Shown here one piece after another: positions 2,017 to 36,943 of a DNA stretch of 64,000 nt (positions are counted from its first letter, which is position 1; every line of letters starts with the position of its first letter). This stretch comes from Candidatus Atabeyarchaeum deiterrae (GTDB lineage Archaea > Asgardarchaeota > Atabeyarchaeia > Atabeyarchaeales > Atabeyarchaeaceae). Position numbers and translations under genes: made by a program. Under the pieces are notes generated by a model. It made no database searches, had not been told where the DNA came from, and saw nothing but the letters and a program-made list of their open reading frames with translations. The stretch spans positions 1,600,001 through 1,664,000 of the forward strand of contig CP147780.1 of the NCBI GenBank assembly GCA_037310415.1, given 5' to 3'.

Positions 2017-3381
2017 TCATTTCCCTCGTCTGGATTGCAGCACCATCAGCTTATCCCTTTTCCTCGTTGTTGAAAGCAATGCTGTGGCAGTTATATACGT
2101 GCTTATCAGAACCAGAGCTGAGTAGGTATAACCGTATCCATGAGGAACTGAATTCGCGAGAGGTTCAGATAGGTACGGGCTTATACCGTTCGGCACATTG
2201 AACGCGAGTTGCGTAAGCGAGTTAACTCTTCCTCGCTTGGTCTCAGGAGTGTGATCCATTGTCATTGCTCCCATCAGCGGGTTGACCATATTCATGAGGG
2301 CCTGCCTTGCAATAAACGCTATTACTGCAGGCAGAAGAACCCGAAAATAGGGAACAACGGCAAGATACGCCGCGCAAGCTATCGAAGCAAACTGACAGGT
2401 CACGGTAGTTCCAACTCTTCCAAGCCTCTTGGCCCGTTTTGCTATCCAAGGTGCTGCAAGGCCTCCCATGGCCGTCCCGAGTTCTCCTAGCAGCGCTATA
2501 GTGTAGATCACGTATTGTTGCACGGGAAATATGGCAGACCAGTAGTAGTTGAAAACTGGGACTAGGAAACCCGCACCGAATCCTATTATGCCTTGAAAAG
2601 CGATCATCTTGATGACTACACCATTTCTCCAGATGCTCGATGGCGGCTTGTAGAGTTGTTTGTGGTTCTTGGTACCTAGTTCCTTTGGACCTGGCAATTC
2701 GAGATCCTTTCTTGATTTTGAGTCTTGGAGGCTGCTTTCCCGAGGTCGACGGGAGATACTTATTAGAAACATGGGTATTGCCGCTATCAGGGCGAGGACT
2801 GCTGAAGCAAGTAGCGGCAACTGATAGTAAGTGTTTGCAGGCAATAAGGTCTGGTAGATGGCCGAGTAGATGATCAATGCCACTGTTCCGATTACACTGA
2901 ACACCATGCTGAAGGACATTGTTATGCTATATCCTTTCTCTCTCCTGTATCCTTCAGTAACATCGGCAATGACACAGTTCTGCGCGGTCCCAAGCAGCGC
3001 AAAGCCTGTTGCCTGTAATGCAGAGGAGTAGAGCAAATGCCACCACTGGGTGCTTACTGGGAGGATGAACATACCAAGAGCAGAGACAGACGCGCCCATT
3101 ATTAACATCGGTTTCCGACCGATCTTATCGGTCAGGACTCCTACTATTGGAAGCGCAACTGACATTGTTATCTGGAACACTAGGTAATACAGTGCGAAGT
3201 CTTGGTACCAATTGACAGGATCTAGGTAAATGATGAAGAACATGACAAGATTGTTGTAGACGCCGTAGCTGAGCCCGTTGAATGCCATGTTCGCTATGAG
3301 TTTGCTCATCGCAGGTTCTCTAATTATCGAAGACCACGAGGAGCTCTGTGTCTTGGGAGTATTGGAAGTCATGAATATCAC
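2017..3381 (-). CDS. MFS transporter
   Basis: About 12 TM segments; MFS motif A (GVLTDKIGRK). Confidence 0.9.
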   Translation of the reverse strand: MIFMTSNTPKTQSSSWSSIIREPAMSKLIANMAFNGLSYGVYNNLVMFFIIYLDPVNWYQDFALYYLVFQITMSVALPIVGVLTDKIGRKPMLIMGASVSALGMFILPVSTQWWHLLYSSALQATGFALLGTAQNCVIADVTEGYRREKGYSITMSFSMVFSVIGTVALIIYSAIYQTLLPANTYYQLPLLASAVLALIAAIPMFLISISRRPRESSLQDSKSRKDLELPGPKELGTKNHKQLYKPPSSIWRNGVVIKMIAFQGIIGFGAGFLVPVFNYYWSAIFPVQQYVIYTIALLGELGTAMGGLAAPWIAKRAKRLGRVGTTVTCQFASIACAAYLAVVPYFRVLLPAVIAFIARQALMNMVNPLMGAMTMDHTPETKRGRVNSLTQLAFNVPNGISPYLSEPLANSVPHGYGYTYSALVLISTYITATALLSTTRKRDKLMVLQSRRGK

Positions 3382-31120: not shown

Positions 31121-32005
31121 CTATTCTTTCTTCTCGACGCGTTTAAAAATAAGTGGTACAATAAAAGCCGCGGCATAGGTGATGATAGCGTATTTTGCAA
31201 ACTCTGTGAAGACATTCGCGCTTGACAACAACAACGAAAGACCCACATATACGACTCCGATTACGAGCAGTCCAATCAGGAGTCTCACAATTCTAGTTCC
31301 GTTATCTATCTTATCTGTTGAGAAGTCTACATATCTCGACTCAAACGCTAATCCAGTGGAAAAACCGAACAACCCACCACAGACGGTGGCGGGATCATCC
31401 CTAGTCGTGTCCGGAAAGACCAGGAGGGATACCGCAAACAAAACCAATGCTATCACAGGGACAACAAGCTGCCTCAACCTCTCCGAGTGCCTACCGAGAA
31501 ACTTCTCGATATGTGGATAAGAGGCGTAGGCTGTCAAAGTGAAAACCAGCCCGATTATGACGCCAGCTATTATGTCTCCAAGGTAGTGAACCCCAAGGTA
31601 CAATCTCGAGAAGCTAATCAGGAAAATCAGCAAAGGAGAAATTATGTACAGAGCTTTATGGCGGGTCTTGAGAGCTGCCCAAGCCCAGAATGTCGCTGCA
31701 CTCTGTGCGTGTCCGCTGGGGAAACCATGTGATATATCGTTCTTGTCAATGATCCTGTATGCAGGATCAGGTCGGCTCATGTTGAACAGCATCTTGAAGA
31801 AATAGTTGACGTAAAAGCCAAAGAGCATTAGGTAAGCAACTATGACGCCTGCTTTCTTATGCAAGCACCAATAGATGACGGCGATCAAACCAATGTAAAA
31901 GATGTCTTCGCCAAGCAATGTGAAAAAGATGAAGAGCCAGTCGAACGCTGGGGAGAGTGCTTGCTGTATTAGCGAAATCAGTCCAGGGTCAAACAACCAA
32001 TTCAA
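31121..32005 (-). CDS. PAP2 family membrane phosphatase
   Basis: K...RP, FPSGH and SRLYLGVHY motifs. Confidence 0.9.
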   Translation of the reverse strand: MNWLFDPGLISLIQQALSPAFDWLFIFFTLLGEDIFYIGLIAVIYWCLHKKAGVIVAYLMLFGFYVNYFFKMLFNMSRPDPAYRIIDKNDISHGFPSGHAQSAATFWAWAALKTRHKALYIISPLLIFLISFSRLYLGVHYLGDIIAGVIIGLVFTLTAYASYPHIEKFLGRHSERLRQLVVPVIALVLFAVSLLVFPDTTRDDPATVCGGLFGFSTGLAFESRYVDFSTDKIDNGTRIVRLLIGLLVIGVVYVGLSLLLSSANVFTEFAKYAIITYAAAFIVPLIFKRVEKKE

Positions 32006-32106: not shown

Positions 32107-33234
32107 TCAATGGACTCGCATGTTTTGAACTTTCATCCATGCATCTCTGCCACTTTTCTCTGGAACGTCGTCTTTGACTTTGACGAGTTTGATCGCATCA
32201 TTCGGGCATGCTCTCGCACAGACACCGCATCCAATGCACTGCTCTTTGTTGAAAACGACCTTTTCATCAGATAAGTCGCTCTTGTGCCCGAAGTGGAAGG
32301 TCAATGCCTTGAATGGACATATCCTCACGCATGTCTTGCATTTCTTGCACGAGTCATAGTCTAGCTCAGGTTGATAGTTTGATCTGGCGAAGGCCCTCGG
32401 ATTCTTCAACTCTGATAGCCCTCTCAGGATTCCACAGCAACACGTGCAACAGTTACAGATGAAGGTAACGTCCTCTTGGCTATTGTTAGTGGTGTGCACA
32501 AGACCCTTTTTCTCCGTCAAATCAAGGATCTTCTCCGCTTCAGCCTTATCTATTGGTCTTCCTACTCCAGAGTCAACGGTCCAATCCGCGAATTTGTCAA
32601 ATGTCAAGCAGACTTCAACTGGTCTGTCACATCTCTTTCTCTCGGTCCTGCAAGCGCAATTCATAACAGCAATCGAATCAGCCTTCTTGATGTATTCGCT
32701 AACTCGCTCGTATGGCAAAACCTCAAGTTGCGGCGAAAAAGTCTTCTCAATGGGAATGACCCTGGCCCAAGGATAATTCGAGGATCCGATCTCAGTACCA
32801 TATCCATCAGAGTAGAAGCGGTCAACCCACTTTCCCACCTCTGCCTTCTCGCTCTCGGGATTCCTACGGTCAGCGAAGTAAGCTTCAAAAACCCCGGGAA
32901 TCAGAGGAAGCAAAGCAAAGTACTCAGTACCTGTTCTCCTACTCTTACTTCTGTAGATCATGCCCCGCCTTAGTAAGCCATCAAAGACCTTCTTGACCTT
33001 TGCTTTATCTATCCCAGTTGCCTTGGAGAAGTCTTCGACGGTTCTGGAGTCCATGTATGGGATATTGAAGTTTGAGAGCATCTTCGCCTCTTCCTCAGTG
33101 AACATCTTCCTTAAGAACTTCAGTATGTCCTCACCTCGAGGCAAACCGATCGGAAAGTTGTCCATCTTGCGCCGCAGCAATTCGTAAACATCATCACTGC
33201 CCTTAACTGCTCCCAAGAAATAACCACCACACAA
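32107..33234 (-). CDS. 4Fe-4S dicluster ferredoxin-domain protein with N-terminal HTH-like region
   Basis: CACR, ICNCCTCCC, CKKCKTCVRICP and CIGCGVCARACP. Confidence 0.88.
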   Translation of the reverse strand: MCGGYFLGAVKGSDDVYELLRRKMDNFPIGLPRGEDILKFLRKMFTEEEAKMLSNFNIPYMDSRTVEDFSKATGIDKAKVKKVFDGLLRRGMIYRSKSRRTGTEYFALLPLIPGVFEAYFADRRNPESEKAEVGKWVDRFYSDGYGTEIGSSNYPWARVIPIEKTFSPQLEVLPYERVSEYIKKADSIAVMNCACRTERKRCDRPVEVCLTFDKFADWTVDSGVGRPIDKAEAEKILDLTEKKGLVHTTNNSQEDVTFICNCCTCCCGILRGLSELKNPRAFARSNYQPELDYDSCKKCKTCVRICPFKALTFHFGHKSDLSDEKVVFNKEQCIGCGVCARACPNDAIKLVKVKDDVPEKSGRDAWMKVQNMRVH

Positions 33235-33441: not shown

Positions 33442-33897
33442 TCATACGGGCGCATTCTTCCTGTGCTGGGATTCAAGAATGCTCTGAAGTCGAGTTCCAA
33501 GCTTGCTTCTGCCCGGCATATCGTAATCCGAAAGAAGTTGACCGAACCCCAAAGGTTCCTCATTTATCGCATCACTTATGCTTCTTCGAAGCTGAGGTTC
33601 GATAGCTTCGAAGTCCCGATCAGACTCGGCATCAAGCACCGCCAAAAACCCTTTGTGCATGTAAATAGTCAGTGTAAGATCTTGGAACTGCACCCTGCGC
33701 GGCAGGTTCTCCTCCATCTCGGCCTCTCTTCCAAATCTCTTCATGGAGGCAGAAAGTAGTCCGGAAAGAAACTCCTTCTCGACCCTTTCCAACGAGTCCT
33801 TACCTTTCTTGATCTCGTCTATCCAATGGAAAATGCACTTGTTGAAGGGACCAAACAGCCACATTGCTCTAATCGTCCCTACCACCGCCTCTCCCAT
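33442..33897 (-). CDS. longin-like domain protein (putative)
   Basis: beta-beta-alpha-beta-beta-beta-alpha pattern (IRAMWLF, CIFHW, FLSGLLSA, RVQFQDLTLTIY, FLAVLDA); own TTTATAT box ~30 nt upstream. Confidence 0.55.
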   Translation of the reverse strand: MGEAVVGTIRAMWLFGPFNKCIFHWIDEIKKGKDSLERVEKEFLSGLLSASMKRFGREAEMEENLPRRVQFQDLTLTIYMHKGFLAVLDAESDRDFEAIEPQLRRSISDAINEEPLGFGQLLSDYDMPGRSKLGTRLQSILESQHRKNAPV

Positions 33898-33987
33898 TTT
33901 CCCATCGTCTAGTTGATAATACTTTCATATAAAGTAATCGCTACCATGATACGGGAACATAATGCTAACCCCTTTTCGATCTCGAGA

Positions 33988-34518
33988 CTACGATGCGCTT
34001 ATCACTTTCCGTCCAACGTGAGCATAAGTAATAACCTTTGAAGCAGTCCTCGCGAGCTCGACAGGCGACCCCAGGCCAATAGCATCATCACCAACTCTGC
34101 CACCAACAACAAGCATTACTGGAATAGAGAATTCCTTGCATATGCTTCGAAGCAGTTCAGAGGCTGATTGAATGGTCTCCCAGTCAGACAATTCCAACAT
34201 GACAATCGCGGCCGTGGCACCCTGAAGGAAGGACACCTCAAACCCAAGGTTCTTCCCTGGACTCTTACTGAGGATCCAAAATGCAACACGACCATCATTC
34301 AAATCCACGACTCGAGTGCCGACGACGTGGCCTTCGCCTCTATCGAAACTGTCCGTACCTGGTCTCTCATATTCCCGATTTTCCTGCAAGCTAGCACGTT
34401 CGTACCCGCCTCTGCTCTTAACCTGTATTACGACAACCTTTCGGACTGTTCTTGATGAGGCGTTGTCGCCTCCAATGGGAGGATTATTCTCTACTACTTT
34501 GTCGCTAACTGTCAACAT
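33988..34518 (-). CDS. degenerate Ras/Rab-like small GTPase fold (pseudo-GTPase)
   Basis: KVVVI, TRVVDL..RVAFWIL, FLQGATAAIVMLELSDWETI and IPVMLVVG occur in Rab order, but GxxxxGKT, DxxG and NKxD are absent; AGGTG RBS. Confidence 0.55.
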   Translation of the reverse strand: MLTVSDKVVENNPPIGGDNASSRTVRKVVVIQVKSRGGYERASLQENREYERPGTDSFDRGEGHVVGTRVVDLNDGRVAFWILSKSPGKNLGFEVSFLQGATAAIVMLELSDWETIQSASELLRSICKEFSIPVMLVVGGRVGDDAIGLGSPVELARTASKVITYAHVGRKVISAS

Positions 34519-34729
34519 TACTCACACCTTCCAATGCCTTTCAGAGCAACTTCTCCAACCTACACTATGGTCGAAGGCTTTAAATACCGACAAAATCATG
34601 TATGAATAAAGGAGTACTGTGTCTCGGAAAGACAGAATGGGGAAAAGATAGAGACAATTTGCCGAGAAAAGCACTAGTTTGACTCGAATGCGTCGGGAGA
34701 AGCCCTGCTGTGTCTTATTCTCTCCCAGG

Positions 34730-34796
34730 GCGTGAACCATTTTAAACCGATTTTGTCGGAGCATTTTAATTTGGTTCACGCAGGAATAACCTTTCT
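34730..34796. promoter_or_regulatory. operator array in the divergent pseudo-GTPase/peptide intergenic region
   Basis: GCGTGAACCA (34730-34739) / TGGTTCACGC (34772-34781) inverted repeat plus GGAATAACCTTTCT (34783-34796), just upstream of BRE/TATA AAAAGTTTAATA (~34801-34812). Confidence 0.65.
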
Positions 34797-34861
34797 ATGA
34801 AAAAGTTTAATAGACACATTTCTTTAAGACGTACCAGGAAGAACCGGAGGGCAGAAGAGGA

Positions 34862-34999
34862 ATGAAAATAGGCGAATTCTTCATAGAGTACAATAGACTA
34901 CTAGTCATCGGAGCGATTCTAACAATACTACTGATGGCTACGCTTCTAGGCGCGCCTGCGGCTGCATTGCCGACGGCTGGAAGCGGGTCACCGGCATAG
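34862..34999 (+). CDS. 45-aa putative secreted peptide precursor (signal peptide plus ~10-aa tail LPTAGSGSPA)
   Basis: Not in ORF track. MKIGEFFIEYNRLLVIGAILTILLMATLLGAPAAALPTAGSGSPA*; GGAGG/GAGG RBS and TATA upstream, T-tract at ~35086-35101 downstream. Confidence 0.75.
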   Translation: MKIGEFFIEYNRLLVIGAILTILLMATLLGAPAAALPTAGSGSPA

Positions 35000-35133
35000 T
35001 TAGTCTAACCAAGAAGCGATCTCTGTGCAAAGAGCCGTGCGCAGCCTTCGTACGGGACCGTATAGATCTTGTGCTGTCCCCCATATTCTTCTTTTTCGTT
35101 TAGGGTCAATTCCTTAGTTTGCAGACTTCGGCC

Positions 35134-36627
35134 TCAGGGTAATGACTCGTAGCGTCTTAGGAAGTTCAGCTCGCCATCTAGACGGGTCCATTGTTGTCTA
35201 CTATCATTCCACTTTTCATACAAGTGAATAAGGCTTCGTCCTCCAATGTTCTCAAACCTGTTAGAAGAAGCAACAACTGTGATCTCGTTTATTCCTTTTA
35301 TCATGTAGTTGATTTTCGCCGCTTCGCTGGCTGCGGATTTGATAAACAGCAGGACGCCCCTGTCCGTTCTATATAGGAAGTAGTAAGGCAGGTACCCCAC
35401 AGCGTAACGCAGTTCCTCGACTTGCTCTTCATCACACTCAATTAGGTATGCATTCAAGTTGTCAAGGCCAAGGCCCCAATATGTCATGTAAGGATAGATG
35501 GCTGGTTGTTTTTCTCCTCCGCCATTCAATGATTGGTTCTCAGCTGACATAAGCCTGTTAATCTTGCGAGTGACTGTTGGCCTGGATATGCCATAGCCAA
35601 ACTGTGTAAGCCGTTTTTTGATCTCGCTGTGGGAGATCAGCGGGTCGGTTGCACATATTGCGGCGATCAGGAAGTCCTTTCTGTCAAACACAAGTGGCTC
35701 AGCTGAATAGTGAAACTCCGCGGCTTTTCTTGATATCTCCTTGTTCTCTCGTATAAATTCGAAGAAGCCATATGCCCATAGTTGCGGATCGAAAAACCAA
35801 CTTCTGCCATCAAAGAATTCCAAGTTTGAACCTGTTGAGAAAGATTTCAGCTCGACTAGGTTGATATCCCGAAATACTTCACCCTTCAGCTCGTTTAGAC
35901 TTTCCTTGAACTCATTAAGCTCCTTGCTATGGTTAGGTATGACGAAACTTGCCCAACTGCTTCCCTCGTAAACGTCTGAATTCAAATTCAGTGCGAAAGG
36001 CAAGTTGTCGAAGAGTAGTCTCCTTAGATATTCATCCTTTCCTCTGTATTCCTCCAAGATGTTGAAAAAGACTATGAAATGTCTCAACTTGAACATTGGA
36101 TAATTGATGTATCCATAGAACCTCAAAAGGCTTGATTTCTGAAGAGAGTTACTCGCATGGGAGACTGCTTGAGGTGAGAACCCAAGCTGCTTCGCAATTT
36201 CAGTGTACGAACTACCCGGATTCTTCATGAAGGTATCTAAGTACAACTTCTGCTTTGTGCGTATTCTCCTCCCTTCGGGCGCAAGGCAAGTGATGAGCGT
36301 TCTTCGGACTACTTCTGGTTTCGTTATTCTATACTTTCTAATACTGGTTAATCTCGAGATCAAAGCATCTCTAATGTTACGGGTTGCTGGCGCAGTGAAT
36401 GGATCAAAATAAGTGAGGGCCAACCTTTTCGTTAAACTCGGGTCAATCATTATTTGCTCTTGCTTTAGCTTGGGGTTATCACATCTCGCCAGGTAAATTC
36501 TTGTGAGAGCAAAAAGCACCTTAAGTTCTCCGTTTTCAACCTGTGGAAACAGGTTATCATACAAGTTTAGCTGTTGAGATATCGACTCTATTAGGTTTGA
36601 GTCTGTTTGCTCGTACTGTTTGCTCAT
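35134..36627 (-). CDS. large transcriptional regulator with two HTH plus Lrp/AsnC-like modules
   Basis: HTH1 NPGSSYTEIAKQLGFSPQAVS and HTH2 DPLISHSEIKKRL...ISRPTVTRKINRL, each followed by an alpha/beta domain; GGTGAGG RBS. Confidence 0.75.
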   Translation of the reverse strand: MSKQYEQTDSNLIESISQQLNLYDNLFPQVENGELKVLFALTRIYLARCDNPKLKQEQIMIDPSLTKRLALTYFDPFTAPATRNIRDALISRLTSIRKYRITKPEVVRRTLITCLAPEGRRIRTKQKLYLDTFMKNPGSSYTEIAKQLGFSPQAVSHASNSLQKSSLLRFYGYINYPMFKLRHFIVFFNILEEYRGKDEYLRRLLFDNLPFALNLNSDVYEGSSWASFVIPNHSKELNEFKESLNELKGEVFRDINLVELKSFSTGSNLEFFDGRSWFFDPQLWAYGFFEFIRENKEISRKAAEFHYSAEPLVFDRKDFLIAAICATDPLISHSEIKKRLTQFGYGISRPTVTRKINRLMSAENQSLNGGGEKQPAIYPYMTYWGLGLDNLNAYLIECDEEQVEELRYAVGYLPYYFLYRTDRGVLLFIKSAASEAAKINYMIKGINEITVVASSNRFENIGGRSLIHLYEKWNDSRQQWTRLDGELNFLRRYESLP

Positions 36628-36678
36628 CTACCTCACCCCATGCCCACAGGTACAGACTGGACGCTGTGACCTGTACGT

Positions 36679-36718
36679 GGAGTAACCTTTCTCTCTCCTA
36701 GTGTTTAAAATGGTTCAC
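36679..36718. promoter_or_regulatory. operator overlapping the regulator's own TATA box
   Basis: 36703-36718 is the exact reverse complement of 34732-34747 (GTGAACCATTTTAAAC); 36679-36692 GGAGTAACCTTTCT matches 34783-34796 at 13/14. Confidence 0.65.
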
Positions 36719-36943
36719 CGACTATTAGTAATTTGTCTCAATGAAATTTGATTTATGTATCGAAAATTATTGTTAGCCATGTTTTGTCTCCAATGTAAGG
36801 GTAGAAAACCTGAACTCTTGCAGTGACTGAGATGGATTAACGCACCAATCGTCAACAAAGCATTGTACGATGAGAATCAGCATCAAGTCCCGCAAGCCTA
36901 TTTAAGTTACATCACCGAATAAGCAAGCTATTGTCTTAGAAGG

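Follow-up and report, generated by a model that had tools for sequence, protein, structure and literature searches.

A conserved four-gene module of Asgard archaea with a tandem Lrp/AsnC-like regulator and a candidate membrane micro-protein

The window analysed here is a stretch of 64,000 nucleotides from Candidatus Atabeyarchaeum deiterrae, an Asgard archaeon (Atabeyarchaeia) of wetland or freshwater sediment (contig CP147780.1; G000:C1:1600001-1664000 of a single-contig genome of 2.76 Mb), and coordinates given without a locus name refer to it. It contains a gene for a micro-protein of 45 amino acids, which is part of a conserved set of four genes. The gene for a 497-residue regulator, on the minus strand, converges on the small open reading frame (ORF), while two further minus-strand genes, for proteins of 176 and 151 residues, are divergent from it. 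These four genes (the last of them wherever the contig extends far enough) are the only set kept together in all of the loci compared. The small ORF is a real and conserved protein-coding gene. As to its function, we tentatively favour, with somewhat less than even confidence, a membrane micro-protein under the control of the regulator. The initial annotation of the window had instead proposed a peptide-signalling system.

The micro-protein gene and its loci

The genes and expression signals of the module are as follows (aa, amino acids; HTH, helix-turn-helix; type A loci are those that resemble the window, as defined below).

34862-34999, plus strand: micro-protein gene, 45 aa (ORF reading, orthologue alignment and an RNA-library contig)
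34805-34812, plus strand: TATA-like element of the small gene (conserved in an alignment of seven type A loci)
34844-34852, plus strand: Shine-Dalgarno site CCGGAGGGC of the small gene (conserved in the same alignment)
35086-35101, plus strand: T-rich tract closing the transcription unit of the small gene, in the space between the convergent genes (conserved in eight loci)
35134-36627, minus strand: 497-aa regulator, predicted to have an N-terminal helical domain and two winged HTH/RAM-like units (Pfam, profile search, AlphaFold2 and Foldseek)
33988-34518, minus strand: 176-aa protein with a predicted Ras/Arf-like fold without nucleotide-binding motifs, a putative pseudo-GTPase (Atlas structure and alignment)
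33442-33897, minus strand: 151-aa ORF (147-aa start in gene callers), putative longin/roadblock-like protein, second gene of the divergent pair (Atlas model)
34566-34586, minus strand: conserved TATA-containing block (..GGTCGAAGGCTTTAAATA) upstream of the 176-aa gene (invariant in type B loci and present in the window)

Reading of the window confirms the position and layout of the 45-residue ORF as first described. The statement that it is unannotated does not hold, as public gene callers do call it: the window's own product is called by gene finders on several contigs and is present in a collection of 5.8 billion proteins. The same collection holds a 43-residue relative, from a metagenome contig with the same gene order.

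Contigs were fetched for nine more regulator orthologues (56–76% identity, one of them from Candidatus Njordarchaeum guaymaensis) and the gap downstream of the regulator was read in each. A small ORF is found in the gap beside the regulator in all 13 orthologous loci whose gap could be read, with a conserved leader and a variable tail, which is the pattern that the initial annotation had predicted. Orthologues of the window's own ORF, here called type A, occur in window-like synteny in G001 (CP147779.1, Atabeyarchaeia-1), the nearest relative in the species collection, and on seven metagenome contigs, with one more variant from a protein library. In G001 the regulator is 62% identical to that of the window, and the ORF in the same place has the same front and a different tail. 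The longest ORF there (L022:6468-6629, 53 aa, starting with ATG) overstates the gene; the alignment of the loci places the start at TTG 6498, in line with the start in the window and 10 nt after a conserved GGAGGGC, to give a protein of 43 residues.

Eight distinct type A sequences were aligned, and a ninth variant was added from a profile search. Over the core of 28 codons, the proportions of synonymous and non-synonymous differences (pS and pN, from summed pairwise differences) are 0.63 and 0.12 in the annotated frame, a pN/pS of approximately 0.19, and the two shifted frames have no such synonymous excess. Insertions and deletions are of whole codons and are confined to the tail. In the DNA alignment of seven loci the position of the start codon (ATG or TTG) is conserved, as are the TATA-like element and the ribosome-binding site. 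These two elements and the T-rich tract had been proposed from the window alone. The tract is kept in all of eight loci, and in most of them it is preceded by a hairpin, in which four of the seven predicted pairs keep their pairing through compensatory changes. The syntenic orthologues, the frame-specific excess of pS over pN and the conserved expression signals together establish that the small ORF is a gene. Its shortness, and the lack of a Pfam or NCBIfam family for it, would be the only grounds for regarding it as a chance ORF in a conserved non-coding spacer; this explanation is effectively refuted by the frame-specific purifying selection and the conservation of start, Shine-Dalgarno site and stop, together with the restriction of whole-codon insertions and deletions to the tail.

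The small gene is probably transcribed. One small metatranscriptome run contains a contig of 221 nt that covers 34863-35082, from the ORF up to the T-rich tract, and another of 268 nt inside the regulator gene, both with at least 99% identity. Contigs from RNA libraries carry no strand and do not prove transcription, and these were counted as a hint. Runs X13, X8 and X9 did not cover the locus, or gave only fragments.

The micro-protein family has no described relatives in Pfam, NCBIfam, the profile search or the protein Atlas. A profile hidden Markov model built from the eight type A sequences found only two proteins of the family among 1.84 billion representatives, a word-index search also found two, and the Atlas gave no usable match for the 45-mer. 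These few matches do not show that the family is rare, because small ORFs are often left uncalled. Searching the whole genome with three variants by tblastn revealed no paralogue of the micro-protein. When genome and metagenome contigs were scanned with the regulator alignment, just two further orthologous loci turned up: L042, and L031, which is identical with G001.

The regulator, a candidate operator box and the divergent gene pair

The initial annotation had described the 497-residue protein as a regulator with two HTH domains, and the domain analysis bears this out. Pfam and NCBIfam identify only HTH families in it, the best being HTH_24 at residues 130–165 (E 6.7e-8), which corresponds to the first winged HTH. 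A profile search against PDB sequences gave weak matches to LrpA/AsnC at residues 123–172 and to the ArgR winged HTH at 318–370, the latter marking the second. An AlphaFold2 model was built from an alignment of 22 sequences (mean pLDDT 80.4, pTM 0.75). The prediction is of a helical domain (residues 1 to approximately 120) followed twice over by a three-helix winged HTH and an α/β domain. In Foldseek the PDB entry closest to this model is NirDL, a siroheme decarboxylase built as a fused tandem Lrp-like protein (4czc; E 4.6e-6, template-modelling (TM) score by target 0.58), and many single Lrp/AsnC regulators come next. Full-length Lrp/AsnC chains align to it with TM scores by target of 0.55–0.62, but the putative RAM domain has no match to Pfam PF01037 (AsnC_trans_reg). 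In JGI, orthologues carry the name 'DNA-binding Lrp family transcriptional regulator'. The model indicates that the regulator belongs to the Lrp/AsnC fold class, in which it represents a new form fused in tandem.

Elsewhere in the genome, at G000:C1:2137274-2140300 (L023:6245-9307), the regulator has two paralogues in tandem (458 and 463 aa; 31–32% identity). They adjoin three genes for KaiC/RecA-like ATPases and have no similar small ORF nearby.

The two promoter regions of the module share a 16-bp box, which was noticed in the initial annotation and proves to be exact in both, specific to the locus and conserved in 12 loci. Its copies in the window are listed here.

34732-34779, no strand: inverted pair of 16-bp boxes, 16 bp apart, candidate operator (conserved in the loci and unique to the locus in the genome); GTGAACCATTTTAAAC at 34732-34747 on the plus strand and an inverted copy, matching at 14 of 16 positions, at 34764-34779
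36703-36718, minus strand: third 16-bp box, the exact reverse complement of GTGAACCATTTTAAAC, 91 nt upstream of the regulator ATG, candidate autoregulatory site

The 15-mer pattern GTGAACCAWWTTMAA has three copies in the 2.76-Mb genome, all of them at this locus, where base composition would predict 0.06 genome-wide. The boxes have an A/T-rich centre. Each of the 12 orthologous loci carries a box before the regulator gene, 68–105 nt from the ATG and in one orientation or the other; because this orientation flips between loci, an operator fits better than a core promoter element. The gap of every locus for which it is available also contains a box, and in 6 of 10 it is accompanied by an inverted copy with no more than four mismatches. 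The pair of type A loci stops 26 bp short of the small gene's TATA, which is where archaeal activators usually sit, and is approximately 150 bp away from the conserved TATA block of the 176-aa gene. The type B loci have the pair between the promoter of the 176-aa gene and the 3' end of the small ORF. From this distribution we infer that the regulator binds the 16-bp box, and an asymmetric site would suit a protein with two unlike HTH domains.

A second shared motif of 13/14 bp, with the core TAACCTTTCT (34787-34796 and 36683-36692), had been proposed alongside the first. It is probably a chance repeat, because it is absent from the orthologous loci and its core has 10 copies in the genome. It may be added that a publicly called 35-aa gene just upstream of the regulator in L035 (4753-4860) is a translation of the operator box (ATGAACCAAATTCAAC...) and not a gene.

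The products of the divergent pair, like the micro-protein, belong to no Pfam or NCBIfam family. For the 176-aa protein, a low-confidence Atlas model matches Ras, Arf and Roc clusters at TM scores of 0.5–0.6. An alignment of nine orthologues contains neither a P-loop, GxxxxGK[ST], nor an NKxD motif. With a Ras-like fold that is weakly indicated and neither of the motifs, 'pseudo-GTPase' seems a fair description. The Atlas model of the 151-aa protein, also of low confidence, matches longin, sedlin and roadblock clusters at TM scores of 0.61–0.72, and its orthologues are found in all the loci at 34–39% identity.

Two forms of the micro-protein and their possible roles

The type A micro-protein can be divided into four parts.

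Residues 1-12: front containing the EFF[IV]EYNR motif
Residues 13-29: hydrophobic helix (predicted)
Residues 30-35: G-A-P-A-A-A
Residues 36-45: variable Pro/Gly tail

The alignment of eight sequences has 17 invariant columns, 15 of which precede the AxA site, even though the regulators of these loci share no more than 58–65% identity with that of the window. The 15 include E-F-F-x-E-Y-N-R, seven positions in the helix or at its end, and the G and P of G-x-P. The n-region has a net charge of zero (K2 and R12 against E5 and E9), R12 abutting the helix. At the AxA site, eight of nine variants have Ala at position −1. Ala or Val occupies −3, and A, M, L or K the variable −2; L042 obeys the −3/−1 rule after a shift of two residues. 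The tail that follows is variable in content and 8–11 residues long. It keeps a Pro at +2 (eight of nine), always contains Gly, and has Pro as its last residue but one, before a final A, F, Y, L or V.

In one clade of regulators, 500–513 residues long (L035, L037, L041, L047 and G002 contig C3; support 98/100), there is no type A ORF. The gap contains instead approximately 200 bp of strongly conserved DNA, which reads as an ORF of approximately 38 aa on the opposite strand, co-directional with the regulator. These ORFs, here called type B, are all uncalled in public annotation.

L035:6641-6754, plus strand: type B ORF
L037:5823-5936, plus strand: type B ORF
L041:2803-2916, plus strand: type B ORF
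L047, in the gap 2605-3362: type B ORF
L046 (G002:C3), below 2864: type B ORF

A GGAGG precedes the ORF, whose start codon is TTG in four loci and ATG in L047. The pS of 0.51 and pN of 0.20 in its frame give a ratio better than that of any of the other five frames. The front reads D-x-x-E-x-[DE]-[RK]-L-x-V-L-G-x-x-L-x-x-L-L-P-T-K-E-G-E-x-K-M, with a hydrophobic stretch of approximately 12 residues, no full-length membrane helix and no AxA site. The tail, of 8–10 residues, has the type A pattern: x-P, then Gly, then P followed by A, F, Y or L. No protein resembling type B is on record in the protein collections searched. In the species collection, G001 (type A) and G002 (type B) are placed in one genus. 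The two types can be matched by eye along their helix segments (R-L-x-V-x-G/A-x-I-L-[TS]-x-L-L), and for this reason type B may be a derivative of type A that arose by inversion and loss of half of the helix. Type B fits neither release of the tail nor residence in the membrane well.

Outside the orthologous loci, 13 distant homologues or paralogues of the regulator (21–33% identity) were scanned for nearby small membrane ORFs, and only G029 had one. This is a 40-aa ORF (L024:4698-4820, minus strand, on G029:C11), divergent from a 472-aa regulator homologue (33% identity), with a strong Shine-Dalgarno site, a basic N-terminal end, one predicted helix ending in V-L-A and a Pro-rich tail of nine residues. 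It may be a third and independent example of the layout, seen at one locus, the contig of a relative ending at the regulator.

The function that we tentatively prefer for the micro-protein rests on its front. The invariant motif of the n-region and the sequence-constrained helix exceed what a mere targeting signal would need, and it is because of this unusually strong, sequence-specific constraint that a membrane-resident protein is suggested. Most known hydrophobic small proteins of prokaryotes are membrane residents, which counts in the same direction. The four genes would then form a self-contained module of the Atabeyarchaeia/Njordarchaeum-type Asgard lineage. The fused tandem Lrp/AsnC-like protein would recognise the asymmetric 16-bp box; the box before its own gene would provide autoregulation, and the inverted pair lies in the promoter region from which the micro-protein gene and the pseudo-GTPase/longin pair diverge. 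The micro-protein would be translated and inserted by its single helix with the N-terminus inside. Its working part would be the constrained front, that is, the cytoplasmic EFF[IV]EYNR motif and the helix, which would stay membrane-bound with or without clipping of the short outer tail, much like those small membrane proteins of bacteria that regulate or anchor others. The pseudo-GTPase/longin pair, being co-regulated, is a possible partner. Topology, a working role for the front and any partner are inferred.

Several observations weigh against a resident membrane protein. Conservation falls exactly at a textbook −3/−1 signal-peptidase site, with the invariant G-x-P before it. The pattern of the tail (Pro at +2, Gly, penultimate Pro, 8–11 residues) suggests that the tail matters and may be released. 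In type B the hydrophobic stretch of approximately 12 residues means that a role as membrane anchor, as stated, would fail for that clade. Finally, the evidence gathered contains no physical link between the micro-protein and any of its neighbours; the complex predicted for the four chains (regulator, 176-aa protein, 151-aa protein and micro-protein) scored 0.20, below the mark, and was counted neither way.

An exported peptide is possible, if on balance unlikely. The 17-residue helix, the G-x-P breaker and the small −3 and −1 residues are those of a signal-peptide h-region and cleavage site. The genome encodes an archaeal signal peptidase I (TIGR02228, 71.6 bits against a cut-off of 51.85), and two of its substrate-binding proteins have signal peptides that are similar in length and end '..P...A'. 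The front thus fits a cleavable Sec signal. Signal peptidase I would cut after the AxA site and release a peptide of 8–11 residues, which its Pro at +2 and its penultimate Pro would make resistant to exopeptidases. The peptide would serve as an extracellular cue or have another function outside the cell; the regulator would control its production and would not be its receptor. The free variation at −2 between small residues, the coincidence of the predicted cut with the boundary between conserved and variable parts, and the length-limited, proline-capped tail kept in both types all agree with this. So does the rapid divergence of the tails: L026 and L042 have near-identical regulators, yet half of the tail residues differ. 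Release of a peptide does not, however, explain the zero net charge of the n-region, the invariant eight-residue motif or the constrained helix, none of which is required for Sec targeting. Since archaea have no SecA, the export of a 45-residue precursor after its translation is hard to explain. Nor does release account for type B, which lacks the AxA site and a full-length helix, and no sensor is conserved in the locus.

It is worth recording that PF00717 is the wrong model for the archaeal signal peptidase, matching none of the archaeal controls, and that other classes of precursor were considered and rejected. A class III (type IV pilin-like) signal has a short basic leader that ends in [KR]-[GA] and abuts the hydrophobic stretch, whereas here EFFIEYNR separates the K-I-G from the helix. 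A sortase-like LPxTG protein would have its motif and helix in the reverse order, and the motif is not conserved. PGF-CTERM and archaeosortase signals require a C-terminal helix. For a precursor of a ribosomally synthesised and post-translationally modified peptide there is no modifying enzyme conserved in the locus, GNAT and SCP2 genes being found only in some of the loci.

The signalling system proposed in the initial annotation goes a step further than export. The released peptide would be re-imported or sensed and would modulate the tandem Lrp-like regulator, which would control itself, the peptide gene and the pseudo-GTPase/longin genes. Parts of this proposal stand, namely the small ORF, the pattern of leader and tail and the shared operator; export, cleavage and sensing by the regulator are hypothetical, and no importer or membrane sensor is conserved in the locus. 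We regard the complete loop, which would be a circuit of the quorum-sensing kind with peptides that diversify like pherotypes, as improbable. It draws on everything that speaks for an exported peptide and on a layout that matches the Phr/PapR/AimP systems, with an operator common to the regulator gene and the peptide gene. Opp/Dpp-type binding proteins (SBP_bac_5) are encoded in the genome, though elsewhere than in the conserved locus. The type B peptide pairs with a single regulator clade, and members of one genus carry different types; this pairing at the level of clades is explained equally well by vertical descent. The receptor would have an Lrp/AsnC-like fold, for which the known ligands are amino acids and other small molecules and not peptides. 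Similarly improbable is cell-to-cell signalling by peptides among Asgard archaea, in which the tails would be autoinducers, their hypervariability and the two types of leader would mark pherotype-like groups, and the receptor would be either the tandem Lrp-like protein or the pseudo-GTPase/longin pair.

A small hydrophobic single helix beside a dedicated, autoregulated and repressor-like gene could also be a membrane-active peptide (type I toxin-, holin- or archaeocin-like) kept under tight local repression. This we consider very improbable: no antisense RNA or immunity gene is evident at the locus, the synteny on the chromosome is stable, purifying selection extends across a family-level clade with no sign of mobility, and an unmodified Pro/Gly tail would be atypical.

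Relation to known systems and neighbouring genes

The closest parallel in layout is with the RRNPP systems of Firmicutes and their phages (Rap/Phr, PlcR/PapR, NprR/NprX and AimR/AimP). There, as here, a gene for a precursor of 40–50 aa lies beside that of a cytoplasmic regulator, which is autoregulated (here putatively). The precursor has an N-terminal hydrophobic segment of the export type, and its short C-terminal part differs from lineage to lineage. The receptors of those systems are tetratricopeptide repeat (TPR) proteins, whereas the regulator here is fused tandem Lrp/AsnC-like. The TPR peptide-binding domain was looked for and is not present (the AlphaFold2 model matches Lrp/AsnC and NirDL, and Pfam finds HTH only), and for this reason the module is not filed as a member of RRNPP. 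It differs further in its archaeal host, in the absence of an Opp system linked to the locus, in a leader far more conserved than the tail would need, and in having one clade without the export-type segment.

MgrB and Prli42, which tethers the stressosome, are small single-pass membrane proteins of bacteria with regulatory or anchoring roles. They resemble the micro-protein in having fewer than 50 residues, one helix, a short conserved cytoplasmic N-terminal end and a dedicated regulator. There is no relation in sequence, and the conserved AxA site and the patterned tail are found only in the micro-protein.

With Lrp/AsnC (feast/famine regulatory) proteins and with NirDL, the regulator shares a winged HTH followed by a predicted α/β RAM-like domain, the unit occurring twice per chain, and with Lrp/AsnC also DNA sites with an A/T-rich centre. 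It differs from them in approximately 120 additional helical residues at the N-terminus and in the missing AsnC_trans_reg match. NirDL is an enzyme, whereas the locus-specific boxes here point to DNA binding.

The adjacent genes for predicted Ras-like and longin/roadblock-like folds in this Asgard genome recall MglA/MglB, Rag-Ragulator and Asgard pairs. We know of no described link between a GTPase/longin pair and a dedicated regulator with a micro-protein gene. Asgard pairs of small GTPases with roadblock or longin proteins have been described (PMC10933270); in contrast to such pairs, the GTPase-like protein here has no P-loop or NKxD. If the micro-protein does reside in the membrane, it would represent a previously undescribed family under a dedicated regulator, and might link the pseudo-GTPase/longin pair, a eukaryote-like signalling fold, to the membrane.

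To our knowledge, no peptide-based signalling system has been genetically defined in any archaeon, and a literature search, which was not exhaustive, found no paper on an archaeal peptide signal. A 2025 paper on quorum sensing in Haloferax lists a carboxylated acyl-homoserine lactone as the sole known archaeal signal, its own signal being an unidentified small molecule (PMC12240190). The module is a concrete and conserved candidate for peptide signalling in the closest prokaryotic relatives of eukaryotes. It offers a clear operator, a regulator that can be folded and short peptides that can be synthesised, so that the question can be approached without culturing the organism.

The genes that flank the module vary between loci. 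One flank has Fe-S/TrmB-like and PAP2 genes, the other GNAT/SCP2 or SDR genes. In the window, the gene at 32107-33234 (minus strand) encodes a protein of 375 aa, which carries a TrmB/MarR-like HTH at its N-terminal end and a 4Fe-4S dicluster region at its C-terminal end, and is followed by a PAP2 phosphatase gene at 31121-32005. Most type A loci keep these two genes in synteny with the module, and L035 does not.

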